IMG/VR virus record: IMGVR_UViG_3300023179_000041 | Coordinates: 1-64,000 of that record | Direction: 5' to 3' (one strand) | DNA: 64,000 nucleotides | DNA from: a virus | Part shown: positions 1 to 14,000 of the stretch, piece after piece | Numbering within the stretch: position 1 is the stretch's first letter | Layout: each line of letters starts with the position of its first letter | Position numbers and translations under genes: made by a program | Notes under the pieces: model-generated | The model's database searches: none | The model's input: the letters and a program-made list of their open reading frames with translations, nothing else | Told to the model about the DNA's origin: nothing

Positions 1-54
1 TGTGATACACTGATAACAGAGGGGAAATACCACAGGCTCACAAGGAGGGCTGAA
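1..54 (+). promoter_or_regulatory. Extended -10 promoter (truncated by window start) and conserved leader/RBS cassette
   Basis: TGTGATACACT then CACAGGCTCACAAGGAGGGCTGAAATG; the same cassette recurs at 1089-1147 and, slightly diverged, at 1720-1786. Confidence 0.75.
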
Positions 55-210
55 ATGAAAAAGAAGTACGAGTGCTGGCAGTGTGCCGAAGTCGTCGCCG
101 AGGAGAGAGTCGATATGTGGCTCGACAACGACGAAGACCTCGGGCTCGCAGCCAGCGACCGAGAGAATCGCAAAAAGCAGTTCGTAGTCTGCAAGGGCTG
201 CAACCGCTGA
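55..210 (+). CDS. Small zinc-ribbon-like early protein (51 aa)
   Basis: MKKKYECWQC...VVCKGCNR with two CxxC pairs; strong AAGGAGG RBS; too short for the ORF track. Confidence 0.75.
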   Translation: MKKKYECWQCAEVVAEERVDMWLDNDEDLGLAASDRENRKKQFVVCKGCNR

Positions 211-217
211 GGGTCGC

Positions 218-249
218 CCCGAGGGAGAAGGGAAACTTTCTCCCTCGGG
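218..249 (+). terminator. GC-rich hairpin after the zinc-ribbon ORF
   Basis: CCCGAGGGAGAA...TTCTCCCTCGGG 12-bp stem. Confidence 0.5.
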
Positions 250-278
250 TTGCAATCTGTCTAACACTATGCTATACT
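250..278 (+). promoter_or_regulatory. Sigma70/SigA-type promoter
   Basis: TTGCAA-N17-TATACT with TG extension. Confidence 0.8.
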
Positions 279-298
279 GATAACAGGAGGAAAAAACA

Positions 299-457
299 AT
301 GACACCAAACGAAGAAATGCTCGATATGATTATCTGGAACAAAGTAGAGGCTGCGTGGTACGGAGTACCCGCGGGCAAGTTCACTCGCCGTGAGGTTCTG
401 CAGCGAATGAACGACCGCCTCGCAAAGGCTCGCAAAGAACGAGAGAAGGCGGGCTGA
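299..457 (+). CDS. Small early hypothetical protein (52 aa)
   Basis: AGGAGG RBS; MTPNEEMLDMIIWNKVEAAWYG...KEREKAG; directly downstream of a promoter. Confidence 0.7.
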   Translation: MTPNEEMLDMIIWNKVEAAWYGVPAGKFTRREVLQRMNDRLAKARKEREKAG

Positions 458-530
458 TGCTCTTGGTGATGGTGGGGGCGAGTCTCGCAATATTGGCATT
501 TAAGTGGATGGAAAAAAATAGTCGCGGGCG

Positions 531-559
531 TTGATTTCGACCCACGAACGTGATACAAT
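531..559 (+). promoter_or_regulatory. Sigma70/SigA-type promoter
   Basis: TTGATT-N17-TACAAT, TG extension, upstream A-tract. Confidence 0.7.
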
Positions 560-595
560 GGAAGCAGGGCAGAGAGAAAGGAACAAGGGAGAAAA

Positions 596-688
596 ATGGT
601 CATTGAAATTTATGACTGGATGACCGCGGTCCCGGTGGCAGTCGCTGCCGTCGTTATCGCAATCATCTTCAAAGCAAAAAAGAAATAA
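596..688 (+). CDS. Small single-pass membrane peptide (30 aa)
   Basis: MVIEIYDWMTAVPVAVAAVVIAIIFKAKKK; hydrophobic helix with basic tail; AAGGGAG RBS. Confidence 0.6.
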   Translation: MVIEIYDWMTAVPVAVAAVVIAIIFKAKKK

Positions 689-741
689 GCGCCAAAGGCG
701 CCTCGCGGGTCGGAAGATTGCCCGCGAGGCGCTCAGGGCGA

Positions 742-820
742 GAGCGGGAGCCCGTGCCCCCAAGGGAACGCCTTGTGCAAAAATAAAACCAATATTCGAG
801 AAACACCATATTTTGGGCGG
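742..820 (+). repeat. About 80-bp imperfect direct repeat, copy 1 (copy 2 at 2006-2085)
   Basis: Shared GAGCGGGAGCC..CCCCAAGGGAACG..AAATAAA..ACACCATWTTTTGGG. Confidence 0.7.
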
Positions 821-830
821 CCGGGAGCAG

Positions 831-971
831 CAAGTGAAAGTTCGCACTTTCACAAGCGGGGGCGAAGGGGAAAGAGGCTGTCAGGGGCAGAAGTAGGGGA
901 GGGCAGGTGTATTCGCGGGGGCGAAGGGCGAAGGGGACACGCGGGTTTGTGAAAGTGCGAACAAGCACTTG
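831..971. repeat. 26-bp imperfect inverted repeat flanking a G-rich spacer
   Basis: CAAGTGAAAGTTCGCACTTTCACAAG (831-856) vs TTTGTGAAAGTGCGAACAAGCACTTG (946-971), 4 mismatches. Confidence 0.7.
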
Positions 972-986
972 TTAGGCAAGCCTGAC
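971..986. promoter_or_regulatory. IdeR/DtxR-like operator
   Basis: GTTAGG-CAAG-CCTGAC matches the TTAGG-N4-CCTAA unit of the DtxR/IdeR iron box. Confidence 0.5.
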
Positions 987-1033
987 ACGCGACCACCGAG
1001 AGTGACTGCGACCACCCAGGGTAGTCAGTCGTT

Positions 1034-1055
1034 TGTCACACAAATGTCACACAAA
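1034..1055 (+). promoter_or_regulatory. 11-bp tandem repeat, OmpR/PhoB-family (MtrA-like) box
   Basis: TGTCACACAAA x2, perfect, just upstream of the 1071 promoter. Confidence 0.5.
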
Positions 1056-1070
1056 AAGTTGCCTCAAAAG

Positions 1071-1099
1071 TTGCAATCAGTCGGGCAGTGTGATACACT
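1071..1099 (+). promoter_or_regulatory. Sigma70/SigA-type promoter
   Basis: TTGCAA-N17-TACACT with TG extension. Confidence 0.8.
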
Positions 1100-1144
1100 G
1101 TTCTTAGTGGGGAAAGTCCCCACAGGCTCACAAGGAGGGCTGAA

Positions 1145-1384
1145 ATGGAAGGCATCATCGGAAGGCGGGTAGCGACACCAGCGAACCCGACGGCTTGGCT
1201 GCGGGACAACGCACGCCAGGGCGCAATGCGCTACACGAGGGACGGCGTCACCGTCTATGTCATCGGGACCAAGGTCACCTATGGCGACCCAGACAAGGGC
1301 ACCGAGCAGCACCCACTGTTCGCCCCCCAGGGCGCCCTAGGGCGTCGCTACACCGACACCAGCGCCAAGCCCCAACTCGACTAA
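1145..1384 (+). CDS. Early hypothetical protein, paralog of 2393-2665
   Basis: AAGGAGG RBS; AWLRDNARQGAMRYTRDGVTV resembles AYLRDNAQHGATLVTRNGVSV. Confidence 0.75.
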   Translation: MEGIIGRRVATPANPTAWLRDNARQGAMRYTRDGVTVYVIGTKVTYGDPDKGTEQHPLFAPQGALGRRYTDTSAKPQLD

Positions 1385-1575
1385 GGGCGACCCCCGAGGG
1401 GGCGGGCACCGCGGGGTGCTCGCCCCCCAAGGGGCGTCCGGGAGCCGCGCGGGTCGGCGTAGGGACACGCGGGCAGAGGGGTCACCAGACGCGCGGAGGG
1501 GCCCCCAGAGCGCCCAAGGAGCCCCCAGAGCGGCGCAGGGCAGCCCCAGGGCGGCAGGCGCAGGGCACGCAAGGG

Positions 1576-1589
1576 CGAACATATGTTCG
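1576..1589. promoter_or_regulatory. LexA (SOS/Cheo) box
   Basis: CGAACATATGTTCG, perfect CGAAC-N4-GTTCG. Confidence 0.7.
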
Positions 1590-1701
1590 CCCGCAGGCGA
1601 GGGCGAGCGACACCGGCACGGGAGCCGCGCGGGAAAGTCGCGAAACCGAGGAAAAACGAGGTTTCTTCGGAGGGCCGCGAGAAAAAATATCACCGCGGGA
1701 G

Positions 1702-1730
1702 TTGCGAACGGCTCAAGGGTGTGATACAAT
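1702..1730 (+). promoter_or_regulatory. Sigma70/SigA-type promoter
   Basis: TTGCGA-N17-TACAAT, TG extension, A-tract upstream. Confidence 0.75.
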
Positions 1731-1783
1731 AGAGACAGAGGGGAAAGGTTCCCCTCGGCAAGAGGCTCACAAGGAGGGCTCAA

Positions 1784-1960
1784 ATGCGCGCAATCAAGGA
1801 AGAAGACCTGCCAGCCGTAATCACCGTGCACGGCGACACCTTCAAGACAGACCTGCGGGTTGTCGAGTTGGTGTGGGTGTCGGACGAGGACGGGACGCTG
1901 TGCGTCGCTCTGGAGAACGGCGACCTCTTCGAGGGTCCGTTCGAGTTCTTCGGCGTCTAA
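1784..1960 (+). CDS. Small acidic early protein (58 aa)
   Basis: AAGGAGG RBS; MRAIKEEDLPAVITVHGDTF...GPFEFFGV. Confidence 0.7.
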   Translation: MRAIKEEDLPAVITVHGDTFKTDLRVVELVWVSDEDGTLCVALENGDLFEGPFEFFGV

Positions 1961-2102
1961 ACCAATCGGCAGCGTGGGGGAGGGCAACCTCTCCCACGCT
2001 GGTGGGAGCGGGAGCCAGGCCCCCCAAGGGAACGGCCTGCCCCGAAATAAATCCGAAATATCTGGAACACCATTTTTTGGGGCGGGGACCGCGCGCCGCG
2101 CG

Positions 2103-2128
2103 AGCGTGTTAGGCGTGCCTAACACGCT
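2103..2128. promoter_or_regulatory. Palindrome containing an IdeR/DtxR-like operator
   Basis: AGCGTGTTAGGC-GT-GCCTAACACGCT; core TTAGG-N4-CCTAA. Confidence 0.55.
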
Positions 2129-2147
2129 TTGACCACTCTCCGCGGTT

Positions 2148-2163
2148 GTTAGGTGAACCTTAC
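2148..2163. promoter_or_regulatory. IdeR/DtxR-like operator
   Basis: GTTAGG-TGAA-CCTTAC. Confidence 0.5.
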
Positions 2164-2392
2164 AAGGTACACGCTATCCGACGAAATAGGTAGGACTATC
2201 GGTACTAGCGACGCGCTCGCGCCTACCCTCTCGCGCTCGCCGTGACCCTCTCGCGAGCCTCAAAAAAATCTTTGCGGAAGACTTGCGCAAGTGTCTAACA
2301 GTGTGCCTAGAATGTCTCTCGTGAGCACGACGACAACCGCGACAACCGTTACGGCGCGACGCGCTCACAGTCTCACGAAAGGGACAACAGAA

Positions 2393-2665
2393 ATGAGCAC
2401 ATACACAGAGCACACGCCCGCGTGCGTGTTGCCACAGCCGACGAATGTCGTCGCCTACTTGCGCGATAACGCGCAACACGGCGCGACGCTAGTCACGCGC
2501 AACGGCGTAAGCGTCGTTGAGACAGGACACAGCGTGTCGCGCTATGTCGCGCAACCGCCAAAGCGCCTTGCGTACCGTCACATAAACCGCGGCGTCATCG
2601 GTAGCACCGCGACGCTAGGACATAGCGCGAGTGACCTACTTCGCGCTGACATTAGCGAGGCGTAA
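2393..2665 (+). CDS. Early hypothetical protein, paralog of 1145-1384
   Basis: GAAAGGGAC RBS; upstream TTGCGC...TAGAAT promoter-like sequence (2283-2313); shared LRDNA..GA...TR.GV motif. Confidence 0.7.
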   Translation: MSTYTEHTPACVLPQPTNVVAYLRDNAQHGATLVTRNGVSVVETGHSVSRYVAQPPKRLAYRHINRGVIGSTATLGHSASDLLRADISEA

Positions 2666-2700
2666 GAGCGAGCACGGCGCGCGTACCCCCCGCGCGCGCC

Positions 2701-2750
2701 GTGCCACTCTCAGAACCTACGACACGGCGCGTAGGTTCTGAGAGTGGCAC
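2701..2750. repeat. Perfect 21-bp inverted repeat (hairpin)
   Basis: GTGCCACTCTCAGAACCTACG-N8-CGTAGGTTCTGAGAGTGGCAC. Confidence 0.85.
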
Positions 2751-2791
2751 AAATGCCACTCACAACACAACACAGAAAGAGAGAAACAGAA

Positions 2792-3304
2792 ATGACTACC
2801 CACACACAACGACACACGGCGCGCCCGTCGCGCTCGCGTGTCACTCGCGCGCGCGTAGGCGCGTGGATAGACAGAAATAGCGACACGCTCACGGCGCTCG
2901 CCGTCGCGACTGTCGTCGTTATTCTGACGACCCTCACCGCGCTCGCGCTAATCAGTGACGGGATTAGCGCCCGTGACGCAATAGGCGCTAGCGCCGTGAC
3001 GCTCGCGTCAGTAGTGTTCGCGTCGTTCTTCGCGTACGCGATTACTGACGACCGCGCAACACGACGCGCCTACGCTCGCTACTCGCGTTCTCACGCGCAA
3101 GTAGTCGCGACGCTCAATAGTCAAATCGCTAACGCTAAGCGCGAAACGCGCGAGGCTATCGGTGGCAAGGCTACGAGCGAGATGAGCGCCTACGAGATAA
3201 GCGCGGAACTCGCGCGCCTCAGTGAGCGCGAGTATCAGTTACGGTACGCCTTGCGCTACTCGCGTACCGATGGAATGGCGACAAGCACGGCGCTACGCAA
3301 GTAG
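2792..3304 (+). CDS. Two-TM membrane protein with C-terminal coiled coil
   Basis: Two hydrophobic helices, helical tail, AGAAAGAGAG RBS. Confidence 0.65.
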   Translation: MTTHTQRHTARPSRSRVTRARVGAWIDRNSDTLTALAVATVVVILTTLTALALISDGISARDAIGASAVTLASVVFASFFAYAITDDRATRRAYARYSRSHAQVVATLNSQIANAKRETREAIGGKATSEMSAYEISAELARLSEREYQLRYALRYSRTDGMATSTALRK

Positions 3305-3322
3305 CACACGCTCACGCGCGAC

Positions 3323-3359
3323 ACGGCGCGCCACTCTCGCGATGAGAGTGGCGCGCCGT
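3323..3359 (+). terminator. Perfect 16-bp hairpin
   Basis: ACGGCGCGCCACTCTC-GCGAT-GAGAGTGGCGCGCCGT after the stop codon. Confidence 0.6.
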
Positions 3360-3580
3360 TGTCGTATCTGGCAACACGCTCGCGCCGTGTCTCTCACGCG
3401 CTCACGCTCGCGCCGTGACGCTCGCACACTCTCACGCGCCAGAATGGGCGAACCTTGCCACACGCGCTCAGACCCTCGCTAGCGCGTCAGAATGGCGCGC
3501 CCGCTATCTAAGTACCCTCGCGCCGTTATCGCGCGCCTATGAGCCTTAGAACGGCGCTCGCGAAAACGCGCACAAGCAGG

Positions 3581-3594
3581 CGAACAAGTGTTCG
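3581..3594. promoter_or_regulatory. LexA box
   Basis: CGAACAAGTGTTCG. Confidence 0.7.
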
Positions 3595-3607
3595 GTCGGC
3601 GGCAGTC

Positions 3608-3616
3608 TGTGGATAA
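3608..3616 (-). promoter_or_regulatory. DnaA box
   Basis: TGTGGATAA is the reverse complement of consensus TTATCCACA; lies between two LexA boxes. Confidence 0.55.
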
Positions 3617-3636
3617 CTTCGTCTATCCGACGAAAT

Positions 3637-3650
3637 CGAACAAGTGTTCG
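3637..3650. promoter_or_regulatory. LexA box
   Basis: CGAACAAGTGTTCG, identical to 3581-3594. Confidence 0.7.
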
Positions 3651-3784
3651 CAATACCCCCCCCACCTTGACCACGCTGAGTGGTCGAGTGGGGCGCGGAC
3701 TAAGCCCTCCTCAAGTTTGCAACCTAAATTGTGCTGTATAGGTGTCCTAATCTCGACCTGAATCCCGCTATCATGACATCAAAA

Positions 3785-3997
3785 CCAGCGGTGTGTGCGT
3801 GTGAATGATTGTCTCCACACAGCACACTTCCTCCTTACCACTGCTGGCAGACCAGTGGGCTCGGCCATATGTCTGCCATCACAAATCCACCGCGAACGTG
3901 CGTGACATCACTACACTGATTGATGGGCAGTGATGGCTTTATCATTTCAGCCACCTTTCTCACCGCTGGCATACCGGTGACACTGTCCTGTATGCCA
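3785..3997 (+). ncRNA. Candidate structured RNA with two pseudoknots
   Basis: Closing helix CCAGCGGTG/CACCGCTGG; H-type pseudoknot CCACTG/CAGTGG plus TGGCAGAC/GTCTGCCA; further hairpins; no convincing ORF. Confidence 0.55.
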
Positions 3998-4002
3998 CTC
4001 AT

Positions 4003-4075
4003 GCCCGTGAAGCATATTTGGCTATGCACCTCACTTGTAATGAGGAGACAGTGGGTTCGACTCCCACCATGGGCT
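4003..4075 (+). tRNA. tRNA-Thr(UGU)
   Basis: Acceptor GCCCGTG/CATGGGC; anticodon arm CCTCA-CTTGTAA-TGAGG; T arm GTGGG-TTCGACT-CCCAC. Confidence 0.9.
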
Positions 4076-4090
4076 CAATAGGATGAACGC

Positions 4091-4390
4091 ATGACTGAAC
4101 TAAAGATGGAATGTGGTGAAGGATGGCGTCACTTGGTTGAAGCGTGTCACCAAGAACTCCTTGCGATTGACCCCAACTACACCCCGACACAAATCAAAGA
4201 AAAGTTCGGACACCTTCGTTACTACTTTGACACCACCCTCAAGTTTGAAGACCCCAACTTCCACCACATGCACAGGATTGCCAATCGTTATGAACTGAAG
4301 TCGATGTGGATGTGTGAAGTGTGCGGCGAAAAAGGTGAAACAATCGCCAGGAATGGCTGGCACAAAACTCTGTGCGAGAATCATAAGTAG
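4091..4390 (+). CDS. Conserved phage protein with C-terminal Zn-binding motif
   Basis: QIKEKFGHLRYY motif; CEVCG...LCENH. Confidence 0.75.
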   Translation: MTELKMECGEGWRHLVEACHQELLAIDPNYTPTQIKEKFGHLRYYFDTTLKFEDPNFHHMHRIANRYELKSMWMCEVCGEKGETIARNGWHKTLCENHK

Positions 4391-5359
4391 ATGAGTAAAA
4401 GTGGCTGGGCAGTTCAACTAGGAGATGACAAACCTAAGTACGACTTGATGCGCATGGCTATGCCAGAAGAACAAGTCCAGTCACTCAATAAAACCAAGCG
4501 CCTAGAGCGGATGCATCTCCTCATCCAAGAGGCACATGAACTCCTCGATTTTGGAATCAAGACGATGATTACTGATGAGAAAAAAAGAGTTGCGGCAATT
4601 TGTGTTTTGTACTCTGGAGGAAACGACTCGACATGTCTTGCTCACCTATTTAAAGACAAGGCAGATTATGCCGTTCACGCCAACACCACAATCGGGATTG
4701 AAAAGACTCGTCAATTCGTGAGAGATACGTGTAAACAGTGGGAACTGCCGCTTCTTGAGTATGTTCCACCTCCAGGTTCTACATACAGAGAATTGATTCT
4801 TGAGGATGGTTTTCCTGGTCCAGGAATGCATTGGAAGATGTATCAAAGACTGAAGGAAAGATGCCTGCGGCAAGCCCGGTCGGAGTTGGTGAAGAAACCC
4901 CGTCAGGAAAGAGTGGTGTTTCTCTCCGGACGAAGAAGGACAGAATCAGCACGAAGAGCGAGCGTGCCAGAACTCACTCGCACTCGTTCAATGGTGTGGA
5001 TAAGTCCGCTGGTGAATTGGACCAAGACTGACCTGTACACGTACAGGGATTGGGCTGGTGATGTGCCCCGCAATGAGGTGTCAGACCTCATTCATATGTC
5101 TGGAGAATGTTTGTGTGGAGCATTCGCCCACAAGGACGAACTGAGCGAGATTGAAGCGTTCTTTCCTGAAGTGGTCGTAGAAATACGCAAACTAGAGAGA
5201 GAGGTTGCAGCAACTGGGAAGCATCCGCCAAAAGTCTGCAAGTGGGGATGGGGCGCAACACAGAAACTGACCGTCGATGACCTTAAGTCTGGTCCGCTGT
5301 GTTCAAGTTGCGAATACAGACAGGAAACCCTGTTCGAAGACCAAGAGCGAACGCACTAA
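4391..5359 (+). CDS. PAPS reductase-family (PP-loop) protein
   Basis: YSGGNDS PP-loop, GRRRTES, SPLVNW, SGECLCG. Confidence 0.85.
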   Translation: MSKSGWAVQLGDDKPKYDLMRMAMPEEQVQSLNKTKRLERMHLLIQEAHELLDFGIKTMITDEKKRVAAICVLYSGGNDSTCLAHLFKDKADYAVHANTTIGIEKTRQFVRDTCKQWELPLLEYVPPPGSTYRELILEDGFPGPGMHWKMYQRLKERCLRQARSELVKKPRQERVVFLSGRRRTESARRASVPELTRTRSMVWISPLVNWTKTDLYTYRDWAGDVPRNEVSDLIHMSGECLCGAFAHKDELSEIEAFFPEVVVEIRKLEREVAATGKHPPKVCKWGWGATQKLTVDDLKSGPLCSSCEYRQETLFEDQERTH

Positions 5360-5389
5360 CTATCCGGCTTGGCCGCATAGGGTCAGGCC

Positions 5390-5584
5390 ATGAACATGGA
5401 AGATAGGGAAGTACAACTACTCCTCTATCGCGCCGACGCTGCTGAGACCGAGTGTCAAGAGTGGCAGTACGTTGCCGACAAACTGTACCGAGCACTGGTT
5501 CTGGAAAAGAACCGACGTGGTGTTGCGTATCAGGATGTCGATATCGTTGCAGACGCGATTGAGGCGTATCAAAAGATTGCTTAG
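5390..5584 (+). CDS. Hypothetical protein
   Basis: ORF in operon context. Confidence 0.55.
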   Translation: MNMEDREVQLLLYRADAAETECQEWQYVADKLYRALVLEKNRRGVAYQDVDIVADAIEAYQKIA

Positions 5585-5892
5585 GTTATTTCGTCTGTGG
5601 GGCGACCCAGCAGGCGTTGTGCCCTGAGTATGAGGGTTCTCTCGCGCGCTGACTTGCCGCCCCAGATGCCAAATCGCTCATTGGTTTCCAATGCAAACTT
5701 CAAACAATCAATCCTTACCGTACACTCTTTACAAATACTCTTTGCCCTACGGAGTTTTTCCACATCTCCAGGCGCGGGGTAGAAGGTATCAACGGGTTCG
5801 TCAAAACAATTTTTATACTTCATCCACTTTGGGCGATTTATCTTCAGGCCGATAGACGGGAAGTCGAGGTCCCATTCGTTGTAGTAGGCCAT
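5581..5892 (-). CDS. whiB: WhiB-family Fe-S transcription factor
   Basis: C...CxxCxxxxxC and FGIWGG(K)SARER. Confidence 0.92.
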   Translation of the reverse strand: MAYYNEWDLDFPSIGLKINRPKWMKYKNCFDEPVDTFYPAPGDVEKLRRAKSICKECTVRIDCLKFALETNERFGIWGGKSARERTLILRAQRLLGRPTDEIT

Positions 5893-6045
5893 AAGTGTGC
5901 GATAGTGTAACAGAGTGTGATAACACCAAGAAGCACGATTAAACGCGGCAGTCTGCTACTGTATCTTTATGGAATTTTGCAATGAGGTTGAAATGGTATG
6001 GCAATTGAGCGGGCGGGGAAACATCAAAATCCTATCGAATAGAGG

Positions 6046-12593: not shown

Positions 12594-12642
12594 AATAATT
12601 AATCTCGGCAAAGCAATTTAAATTAGTGTTAGGATTTCAGTC

Positions 12643-13425
12643 ATGGACCTTCAAAAACAATACGAAAGCCTTACAGTTAAAGAGCCGATTCCAAGCACCG
12701 CCGACTGGAACGAGTCTGGTTTTGTTGTTAAGAAAAAACTGATGCCGGAAGATTTGATGGTCACATACGAAGATTGTTGGCTTAGGGAAAACGCAGACAG
12801 GCCAAAAGGTTGGCCATATTGCACACCATATAGAGAACATCAAGAAATATTAGAAATTCTTTCCTATAAGGGCATTCACGAAACCATCGAAGAACTTATT
12901 GGGGAACCAGGAGGAGTTCACCTAAATCTCACAGGATGGATTTCAACCACACGAAATTGGCATCAAGACACATATTTAAACCCCCCAGGCGTTGGAGATT
13001 ACTACTGCGCCATTTGGATTGCTCTTGATGACATACACCCAGATTCCGGCCCATTTCAGTTTGTACCAGGTTCCCATATGTGGAGAACAGCAACACGAGA
13101 AAAAATTCTTGCCAAACTCCCAGCGGAAAAACAAAATCACACGTGGCCCAAACATAGCGAAGAACTATTAACAGATGTTTTCGAGCATCAAATACAAATT
13201 CGTCAAGCAGAGGTTGTTACGTACTTGCCAGAGAGGGGAGACGTTCTTTTTTGGCACGGAAGGCTGCTTCATCGCGGCTCTATTCCTAACAATGAATCTT
13301 TAACACGGAAAACGCTTATCGCTCATTATTCTGGAATAAATCACAGAAAAGATATGCCAGCGGCACAAAAATACAAAGACGGTTGGTTTTTCCCAATAGA
13401 CGATTACAGTTCGGGAATGCGATGA
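12643..13425 (+). CDS. PhyH-family 2OG-Fe(II) dioxygenase
   Basis: WHQD, IWIALDD, GPFQFVPGSH, GDVLFWHGRLLHRG. Confidence 0.88.
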   Translation: MDLQKQYESLTVKEPIPSTADWNESGFVVKKKLMPEDLMVTYEDCWLRENADRPKGWPYCTPYREHQEILEILSYKGIHETIEELIGEPGGVHLNLTGWISTTRNWHQDTYLNPPGVGDYYCAIWIALDDIHPDSGPFQFVPGSHMWRTATREKILAKLPAEKQNHTWPKHSEELLTDVFEHQIQIRQAEVVTYLPERGDVLFWHGRLLHRGSIPNNESLTRKTLIAHYSGINHRKDMPAAQKYKDGWFFPIDDYSSGMR

Positions 13426-14000
13426 AATTGCTAAACGCGGGATGTGGAACCCACTACGCATCTGGTTGGGTAAATACAGACGTGTGGAATGATGGACAAA
13501 CGACAAAACCCGATGTTCAAGTAGAAACAGGAAAACCATACCCGTTTGAAGAAAATACTTTTGATGCTGTTTATCTTGGTCATGTTCTTGAACACATTCC
13601 ATGGCCAAAAGTCTTTGAATTTCTTCAGGATATGAAAAGAATTTCTAAGCCAGATGCAAAATTTTTGGTTTGTGGGCCAGACGTTTTTAAAACAATCAAA
13701 CGATGGGCAACTGGCGCTGAGCCTTGGTGGATGATTGAGTCGACAATGGAGCATCAAGACATTAATTCTCAGCCAGAAAGAGAACACTTGTGGTGGGACG
13801 GGGCACATCACCATTGGAACTGTCACCATGAACGCGTAGTGCGGTTACTTCAATTAAGTGGTTTTGCAAACATCCAAGACGTTTGTGAAAATATCCCTAA
13901 AGATGTGCATGGAAAGTCATGGCACCATGAGGGCGTTGTTTGGCCTGTGGTAGGGCACTGGCACTGGCAATTTGCTATTTTTTGCCGAAATAACAAGTAG
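13422..14000 (+). CDS. Class I SAM-dependent methyltransferase
   Basis: LNAGCG, FDAVYLGHVLEH, RISKPDA. Confidence 0.85.
   Translation: MKLLNAGCGTHYASGWVNTDVWNDGQTTKPDVQVETGKPYPFEENTFDAVYLGHVLEHIPWPKVFEFLQDMKRISKPDAKFLVCGPDVFKTIKRWATGAEPWWMIESTMEHQDINSQPEREHLWWDGAHHHWNCHHERVVRLLQLSGFANIQDVCENIPKDVHGKSWHHEGVVWPVVGHWHWQFAIFCRNNK

Follow-up and report, generated by a model that had tools for sequence, protein, structure and literature searches.

The first 3.7 kb of IMG/VR virus record IMGVR_UViG_3300023179_000041 belong to an early block in which short boxes resembling the operators of LexA, of the iron repressor IdeR/DtxR and of DnaA are strung together in ordered slots. The window considered here comprises positions 1-64,000 of this 106,278-nt viral contig, and positions are those of the window unless the contig is named; the phage itself is referred to as G000. 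As judged by sequence comparison, the boxes are real, are constrained in their position, are under selection and copy the operators of an actinobacterial lineage. That host LexA, the host iron repressor and host DnaA would bind them as modular inputs to the early control regions is given an even chance, and the phage probably reads or soaks up these three proteins.

The early block measures 25 kb. It begins at contig position 84,987, extends to the contig end at 106,278 and continues through the junction to 1-3,650, so that the window holds its last 3.7 kb. The last 11 nt of the contig are identical to its first 11 nt, and both lie inside a repeated promoter -10. Further, the contig of a related phage (G003) is broken at a different point of the same circular gene order, and window position 1 is spanned by contigs from other lakes. 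Thus, position 1 is an assembly break within a repeated promoter and not a terminus. The original prediction, which was made from the letters of the window, proposed a landing pad to shield or ratchet an entering DNA end; the window start is no such end.

All the motifs listed in that prediction are present at the positions given, and they exceed chance by a wide margin. In the window, CGAAC-N4-GTTCG occurs three times against 0.07 expected from shuffled sequence, GTTAGG-N4-CCTNAC three times against 0.02, and TTATCCACA three times against 0.28. The tandem of TGTCACACAAA is found nowhere else in the contig. Over the whole contig, there are six perfect LexA-type boxes (1576, 3581, 3637, 93237, 100858 and 104961, with a one-mismatch neighbour at 104945) and six GTTAGG-N4-CCTNAC boxes (971, 2108, 2148, 93414, 99779 and 104506). 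All six of either kind lie within the early block, and none lies in the other 81 kb. When the early block was simulated 500 times with a Markov-2 model, the observed counts were not matched even once (the means being 0.054 for the LexA-type and 0.008 for the GTTAGG boxes), and reversed control patterns stayed at chance level in the contig. The spacers of the LexA-type boxes all fit R-N-N-Y. The positions of the boxes and of the features around them are collected in the table.

Table. Boxes, promoters, genes and other features in and near the window part of the early block (window positions, unless the contig is named)
Feature	Position	Strand	Remarks
Window part of the early block	1..3650	+	same-strand promoters, small genes, palindrome depletion
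75-nt element copy, ending in AACACCATATTTTGG	737..817	+	heads box string 833-1055
Palindrome GTGAAAGT-N4-ACTTTCAC (C box)	833..854		weaker second copy at 948-969
IdeR/DtxR-type single-dimer box GTTAGGCAAGCCTGAC	971..986
Tandem of two TGTCACACAAA	1034..1055	+	copies at 1034 and 1045; GTCACA cores, 11-nt period; ends 15 nt before the -35 at 1071
Early promoter TTGCAA-N17-TACACT, extended -10	1071..1099	+	serves gene 1145-1384
Small gene, 79 amino acids	1145..1384	+
LexA-type box CGAACATATGTTCG	1576..1589		after the end of gene 1145-1384; 126 nt before the -35 of promoter 1702-1730
Early promoter TTGCGA-N17-TACAAT	1702..1730	+	serves gene 1784-1960
75-nt element copy	2001..2081	+	heads box string 2108-2186
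IdeR/DtxR-type box GTTAGGCGTGCCTAAC	2108..2123		27 nt past the 75-nt element; relatives have a LexA-type box in the slot
Word GACCACTCTCCGCG	2131..2144	+	between the two slots; near-invariant in four lineages
IdeR/DtxR-type box GTTAGGTGAACCTTAC	2148..2163		two relatives have TTATCCACA in the slot
Word ATCCGACGAAA	2176..2186	+	second copy at 3625-3635 in the boundary cluster; conserved in G001 and G003
Second-class promoter, spacer TGTCTAACA, -10 TAGAAT	2283..2313	+	serves gene 2393-2665
Paralog of gene 1145-1384, 90 amino acids	2393..2665	+	86% identical to the G001 ortholog
Gene of 170 amino acids with a hydrophobic stretch	2792..3304	+	conserved in G001 and G003
LexA-type box CGAACAAGTGTTCG	3581..3594		first of the boundary cluster
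DnaA-type box TTATCCACA	3608..3616	-	perfect; between two LexA-type boxes
LexA-type box CGAACAAGTGTTCG	3637..3650		closes the boundary cluster, 56 nt past its first LexA-type box; palindrome density climbs after this element
Conserved promoter-like block (TTGCAA ... CTGTATAGGT)	3717..3743	+	opens the next gene block, from tRNA-Thr 4003-4076 onward
WhiB gene	5581..5892	-	among the few minus-strand genes, just past the early block
Second WhiB gene	contig 79,212-79,409

Slots and their conservation in relatives

The box strings are headed by a co-oriented, phage-specific element of about 75 nt, which ends in AACACCAT(A/T)TTTTGG. Viral contigs related to that of the window were found by scanning for this element, and the comparison was made with five of them (G001-G005). 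As G002 and G005 are almost the same, four independent lineages remain besides the window's own. Perfect LexA-type boxes number 5, 4, 2, 7 and 4 in G001 to G005, respectively, against 0-1 for the reversed control, and their spacers, too, all fit R-N-N-Y. Tandem LexA-type boxes spaced by 15 nt recur in the relatives, and so do the GTTAGG boxes, TTATCCACA and the word ATCCGACGAAA. It was also observed that TTATCCACA often stands there as an inverted pair, TTATCCACA-N3-5-TGTGGATAA; in three relatives, the position orthologous to 3608-3616 is occupied by the inverted pair TTATCCACA-N3-5-TGTGGA(T/A)AA. The enrichment expected earlier, over the rest of the genome as well as in related phages, was found, the same families of boxes being present in four lineages. 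The contigs from other lakes are too few for a statement on strain-level conservation; they show two variants, near 3606 and 3622, and neither of these touches a box.

The strings occupy three kinds of places: some follow the 75-nt element, some fill the space from a terminator to the promoter that comes next, and some stand where the block ends. In ten copies of the element, the first box begins 15-27 nt past its end, and in an eleventh (G004 1961), it begins at 60 nt. The usual order in a string is the GTGAAAGT palindrome, a GTTAGG box, one or more GACCACTCTCCGYG words, a GTnAYA-N5-GTnAYA repeat and then the promoter -35. The alignment of 2001-2330 with its orthologs revealed that the frame is kept and the types of box differ. 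The first slot carries a GTTAGG box in G000 and G001, a single LexA-type box in G003, and a perfect LexA-type box with an adjacent one-mismatch copy in G004. The second slot, which follows GACCACTCTCCGCGGTT, is filled by a GTTAGG box (G000, G004) or by TTATCCACA (G001, G003).

At the block exit (3520-3800), the order in G000 is LexA, TGTGGATAA, ATCCGACGAAA and LexA. At this place, G004 carries a GTTAGG box, LexA boxes in tandem and an inverted pair of DnaA boxes, and G001 and G003 carry CGCACAAGCG repeats along with a pair of DnaA boxes, of which the second arm is imperfect (TGTGGAAAT). In all four phages, the exit is followed by a conserved C-run and then by a conserved promoter-like block, after which tRNA-Thr is the first of the next genes.

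One LexA-type box, which comes right after the hairpin that terminates the DUF932 gene, is shared as an ortholog by four lineages, and 13 of its 14 positions are invariant. At this locus, the loop and the stem length of the hairpin vary, and the flank downstream of the box diverges. In front of the same DUF932 gene, two DnaA-type boxes form an inverted pair about 10 nt ahead of the promoter -35 (contig 91,974-91,994); the pair is half-decayed here and perfect in three relatives (L053:3557 and the orthologs in L051 and L054). Another LexA-type box adjoins a conserved non-coding unit of about 130 nt (TGTCTAACAGCC..GACGCAATAGGAAGC..), which is present at contig 104,945-105,050 and, in L053, at 12,598-12,735 and 13,621-13,757. 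The box stands after the unit in G001 and before it in the window's contig, and the unit itself is possibly a small RNA or a variant of a promoter.

Host-class operators and candidate binders

The phage is uncultured, large, apparently virulent and actinobacterial. Its contig has genes for a terminase, a portal, a protease and a class II ribonucleotide reductase. With 44-48% identity to the capsids of Gordonia phage GMA6 and Brevibacterium phage Cantare, the capsid protein is the only link to such phages; no DNA-level match, near or distant, was found in the phage collection. The two WhiB genes of the contig point to an actinobacterial host; among 14 control genomes, the WhiB family was found in one, and that one is an actinobacterium. 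The metagenomes containing the phage DNA are of lake or freshwater origin and come from several studies. In agreement with the original prediction, which had noted no integrase, a search for tyrosine integrases in five phage records (G000 and four relatives, 38-79% complete) returned none. The reading of the boxes as a lysogeny switch is, therefore, without support and was set aside.

A fragment of class II reductase that is 79% identical to that of the phage was found on a contig of 4.8 kb that had been assigned to a freshwater metagenome-assembled genome (MAG) of the Acidimicrobiia. This MAG was used only as an entry to an actinobacterial class, the candidate host class, of which 41 genomes were searched for the operators. 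Reductase fragments 76-79% identical to the phage's are carried by two GTDB MAG contigs of 3-5 kb (L056 and L057) from Acidimicrobiia and Alphaproteobacteria bins. These contigs are probably mis-binned phage DNA, so that membership of a bin is a weak clue to the host.

In the Acidimicrobiia genome G006, the 140 nt that lead up to lexA contain four LexA-type boxes, two of them perfect and two with one mismatch, and one of the four differs from the window's box at a single position of an arm. Most of the larger genomes of the 41 have 12-39 matches to the LexA-type pattern and 0-11 to the control. GTTAGG-N4-CCTAAC is present in 11 of the 41 genomes. Seven of the 11 loci inspected are in promoter regions, four of these being tandem arrays of two or three, and the seven precede genes for siderophore-type binding proteins (two), FbpA/SfuA-type proteins (four) and an FTR1 iron permease (one). 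The FTR1 locus carries the canonical core of the iron box, and one gene of the DtxR/IdeR family (PF01325) was found in each of five host-class genomes checked.

The iron box is known as a 19-bp sequence, TTAGGTTAGGCTAACCTAA, to which two dimers bind on opposite faces (PMC4689551). The phage sites are 16-bp single dyads, and none of them extends to 19 bp. As the consensus is read here, the 19-bp box is made of two overlapping TTAGG-N4-(C/G)CTAA units with an offset of 5 nt, and the GTTAGG box of the phage would thus correspond to one dimer unit. An objection to the IdeR reading, that the centre of the dyad differs from that of the 19-bp box, was withdrawn on the strength of this decomposition and of the host loci. 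In the case of DnaA, boxes that equal TTATCCACA or deviate from it by one mismatch are grouped next to dnaA in five host-class genomes, and the perfect form is present in three. In a replication origin, DnaA boxes form a cluster together with an unwinding element; the phage has only one or two such boxes at any place, and a candidate initiator of HTH_36/DnaD-like type is encoded elsewhere, at contig 72,831-73,496. CGAAC-N4-GTTCG is thus assigned as a putative LexA site, GTTAGG-N4-CCTAAC as that of one IdeR/DtxR dimer and TTATCCACA as that of DnaA; these are the assignments made originally, and the genomes of the host class bear them out.

The case of the direct repeats is different. The MtrA box has two direct repeats with a period of about 11 nt and a GTCACA-like core (PMC4285127). 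The tandem of TGTCACACAAA fits this architecture, related GTnAYA-N5-GTnAYA repeats exist in all lineages, and eight of 13 repeats of the GTnAYA type start 33-39 nt before the TGTCTAACA spacer of a promoter, i.e., just upstream of the -35. By its architecture, the tandem may, therefore, be an OmpR/MtrA-type site, as had been proposed. The palindrome GTGAAAGT-N4-ACTTTCAC is not enriched in the 41 genomes (14 matches against 14 for the control), and hence no host reader can be proposed for it.

DNA-binding domains of the LexA, DnaA C-terminal, IdeR and OmpR types were searched for in the five phage records, and none was detected. The regulators that are recognisable, namely a conserved XRE-type protein, the HTH_36/DnaD-like protein and the two WhiB proteins, are fewer than the types of box.

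If the host regulators do bind, they would block, insulate or stimulate the transcription of particular early units. The targets would notably be the thrice-duplicated gene family of 1145-1384 and 2393-2665, which always follows a box string, and the passage into the next gene block. The timing of phage genes would in this manner be tied to DNA damage, iron status and the state of replication in the host. The bound proteins could act as roadblocks after terminators, at operators that follow the 75-nt element, or from an upstream position as activators or anti-silencers. In addition, a response regulator may bind the direct repeats of the TGTCACACAAA class upstream of the -35, which would then serve as activator sites. 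Among the functions suggested originally, the sensing of host state is the best supported, and titration is possible.

Several observations weigh against the binding of host proteins as control inputs. Most of the boxes turn over between the relatives. No box overlaps the -35 or -10 of any recognisable sigma-70-type promoter, a point already made in the original prediction and confirmed here for all the promoters that can be identified. Some LexA-type boxes precede a promoter by 64-130 nt, some come right behind a terminator, and some stand 16-60 nt past the 75-nt element; such placement is atypical and fits simple repression poorly. A role for the boxes behind the element as operators just downstream of a promoter is conjecture. 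The four FbpA/SfuA-type proteins match their NCBIfam models only below the curated cut-offs, and the iron specificity of these transporters is probable. The Acidimicrobiia are a candidate host class by a weak hint, the link being the one phage-like contig of 4.8 kb in a MAG. Moreover, the XRE-type regulator and dozens of uncharacterised small phage proteins could bind some of the boxes.

Palindrome depletion and alternative explanations

The early block is set apart by its palindromes as well. GATC and AGCT are completely avoided as two 4-base restriction-type words: neither occurs in the contig, where about 330 and 280, respectively, are expected from trinucleotide counts, and both are also absent from 100 kb of the relatives' loci. 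Depletion of CATG, ACGT, AATT, TGCA, CCGG, TTAA and GGCC by 2-6-fold is seen only in the early block, and CTAG and GTAC are not depleted there relative to the rest. The palindrome density is 16/kb in the block against 36/kb elsewhere. The left edge of the depletion coincides with the first full 75-nt element (84,987), and the right edge falls between 3,650 and about 3,720, immediately past the cluster of LexA, DnaA and LexA boxes at 3581-3650. The relatives have the same edges, one marked by the first full 75-nt element and the other by the DnaA pair. Such depletion is the footprint expected of DNA that meets host restriction enzymes before any counter-measures of the phage are in place.

These edges are the ground for supposing that the early block enters the cell first, that the cluster at 3581-3650 marks its end, as the injection-stop region does in phage T5, and that host proteins bound there pause or ratchet the entry of the DNA. 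The selective depletion from 84,987 through 3,650, the rise of palindrome density within about 70 nt after the cluster, the shared edges in relatives and the single direction of all the early promoters agree with it. However, the contig closes on itself and its ends are assembly breaks. Early transcription ends at the edge too, and a conserved promoter follows shortly after; this accounts for the cluster with no need of a part in entry. Most of the boxes, moreover, are inside the block and not at its edge, and the supposition is decidedly unlikely. There is a wider proposal that joins entry with control. According to it, the 25-kb block enters first, and LexA, the iron repressor and DnaA at the slots and at the exit cluster would form a checkpoint, physical or transcriptional, for the passage from the early genes to the rest, which the relatives re-wire by swapping the sites in each slot. 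It is quite unlikely as a whole. The boxes might instead serve mainly as a sponge or decoy that titrates LexA, the iron repressor and DnaA during replication of the phage DNA. The SOS and iron-uptake regulons of the host would then be turned on, or the control of replication disturbed, and the phage would profit. This is unlikely, and yet several facts are in its favour: the sites are perfect consensus copies placed mostly away from core promoters, and their number and place vary between relatives. The phage has 6-7 perfect LexA-type boxes, against mostly 12-39 per host-class genome, and its GTTAGG boxes (three perfect and three near-perfect) compare with 0-2 perfect ones per host-class genome; with a few tens of phage copies in the cell, the host sites would, therefore, already be in the minority. 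A sponge, however, has no need of a near-fixed distance after the 75-nt element, of fixed slots, of a site orthologous in four lineages or of confinement to the early block. Also, a single incoming genome brings too few sites for an early action, and yet it is only in early DNA that the sites exist.

The boxes could also be operators of the phage's own proteins, either of the XRE-type regulator (contig 90,029-90,292) or of small early proteins, that share or mimic the specificity of host regulators. A conserved gene with a Cro/C1-type helix-turn-helix is indeed present in the early block of all lineages, and at least three types of box (the GTGAAAGT palindrome, GACCACTCTCCGYG and ATCCGACGAAA) have no identified host counterpart, the palindrome lacking enrichment in the host-class genomes. 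Against this, three types of box equal host operators in fine detail, such as the R-N-N-Y spacer of LexA and the Y/R positions beside the TTAGG arms, and none of the four domains sought was detected in the five phage records; phage-encoded binders are accordingly given a small chance, as small as that of the checkpoint. Lastly, it is highly improbable that the boxes are there by chance, or as passengers of duplicated intergenic cassettes. Several of them do lie in duplicated modules, e.g., 758-1060 and contig 104,397-104,560. Nevertheless, the LexA-type boxes have unrelated flanks and are retained where the flanks diverge, and types of box replace one another inside modules that are otherwise conserved. 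The binding of host regulators as inputs to early control regions is the reading carried forward.

Early genes and known systems

The early block has about 45 sigma-70-type promoters, all on the same strand, and every one of them precedes a small open reading frame with a strong ribosome-binding site. The promoters have two forms, GTTGC(A/G)AA-N12-TGTGATACA(A/C)T and a second one with the conserved spacer TGTCTAACA. Promoters of the second class are found at 250-278 and 2283-2313, at contig 96,005 and 105,883, and at other places, and their spacer is invariant. They carry TGTC 11-12 nt ahead of the -10, which is the geometry of the PafBC motif, and they keep a good -35, unlike PafBC promoters. 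The motif is given as tGTCgg(N10)tA(N3)T (PMC8635444).

The stretch 800-3690 had originally been described as non-coding. It holds four genes with promoters and ribosome-binding sites (1145-1384, 1784-1960, 2393-2665 and 2792-3304), three of which are kept as proteins in the relatives, and that description cannot be upheld; about 58% of the stretch is intergenic. The genes 1145-1384 and 2393-2665, along with contig 104671-104898, form a family of paralogs, each copy lying behind a 75-nt element and a box string. The proteins of this family have 75-94 amino acids (114 in one relative's copy) and an invariant N-terminal motif, N-x-T-A-(W/Y)-L-R-D-N-A-x-x-G-A. The small open reading frames of the region belong to no Pfam or PHROG family. 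For the paralogs, no Atlas lead was obtained, one member has no sequence match in the PDB, no fold match was obtained with a model of moderate quality (predicted local distance difference test score, pLDDT, 70), and no relative was found among the 41 host-class genomes. A profile match of the family to E. coli RecA fusion chains was not counted, as it arose from a 10-residue motif summed over repeated copies; the 10-residue likeness to the C-terminal domain of E. coli RecA is not significant per copy.

Other observations on the same stretch concern its non-coding DNA. An identical 17-nt leader, GGCTCACAAGGAGGGCT, is present at 35-51, 1125-1141 and 1764-1780, where it carries the ribosome-binding site of three early genes, and each copy is preceded by a short GGGGAAA..CCCC hairpin. 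Positions 2200-3560 form a CpG-rich module, made of two genes and long CGCG-rich spacers, with 60-63% GC against 48% in the body of the phage; the module is conserved in G001 and G003. The spacers at 856-946 and 1385-1570 are unusually rich in G and purines on the transcribed strand, with many runs of G3-G5, and in this area the GC content is higher in the non-coding than in the coding DNA. An imperfect direct repeat of 22 nt occurs at 856-877 and 915-936. Rfam searched on 1-6000 gave nothing besides tRNA-Thr.

Sites for host regulators have been described in several other phages. Lytic T4-like cyanophages have 1-16 NtcA sites per genome, and they also have Pho boxes to which host PhoB binds in gel shifts (PMC3037559, PMC10976474). 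The phage described here is like them in being an apparently virulent phage with multiple sites of host global regulators and a predicted coupling to the stress state of the host. It is unlike them in that the sites are of the LexA, IdeR and DnaA types, belong to an actinobacterial phage and are gathered in one early block as strings behind a 75-nt element; further, the types of box swap at homologous slots, and most boxes are not at core promoters. In temperate phages, host LexA is known to bind a phage operator, as in GIL01 (PMC6182141) and at the Gifsy antirepressors (PMC3121763). A LexA-type operator on phage DNA and a link to the SOS response, here predicted from sequence, are common to both cases. 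Further examples of temperate phage genes controlled by LexA are known from coliphage 186 (tum) and CTXphi. All of these are lysogeny switches with the LexA box at the promoter, whereas the present phages have 6-7 boxes per genome, placed ahead of promoters or behind terminators. In the temperate corynephage beta, one full 19-bp DtxR box covers the promoter of tox, a moron gene. The resemblance is that of a DtxR/IdeR-family site on the phage genome of an actinobacterial host; the difference is that there are here six 16-bp single-dimer units in early control regions.

Parallels in the layout of the block can be drawn too. The first-step-transfer region of T5 has an injection-stop signal, and DnaA boxes are found in repeat regions of this phage. 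Here, as in T5, small early genes with strong promoters of host type form a block that has few restriction sites and ends at a cluster with a DnaA box; unlike in T5, the boxes are spread through the block. The host-takeover module of Bacillus phage SPO1 likewise gathers many small genes in one place and provides every gene with a strong early promoter and a ribosome-binding site. That module is not known to have strings of host-regulator operators. In cluster A mycobacteriophages, the stoperators are asymmetric, belong to the phage's own repressor and occur genome-wide. They are similar in being short operators repeated in the intergenic regions of an actinophage, whereas the sites described here are of host type and confined to the early block.

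Previously, such sites were known one regulator at a time, namely LexA in temperate phages, DtxR at tox, and NtcA and PhoB in cyanophages. What differs here is that consensus sites of at least three host global regulators are found in ordered, exchangeable slots within one early block of an apparently virulent actinophage, and that this layout is common to a family of abundant lake phages. It differs, too, in that the exit cluster falls at the edge of the block poor in restriction sites, which offers a testable tie between the binding of host proteins and the entry of DNA. If the boxes are bound, they would represent a compact natural case of a virus reading DNA damage, iron and the state of replication before committing to its programme, and they would provide ready test fragments for the regulators of uncultured freshwater actinobacteria.

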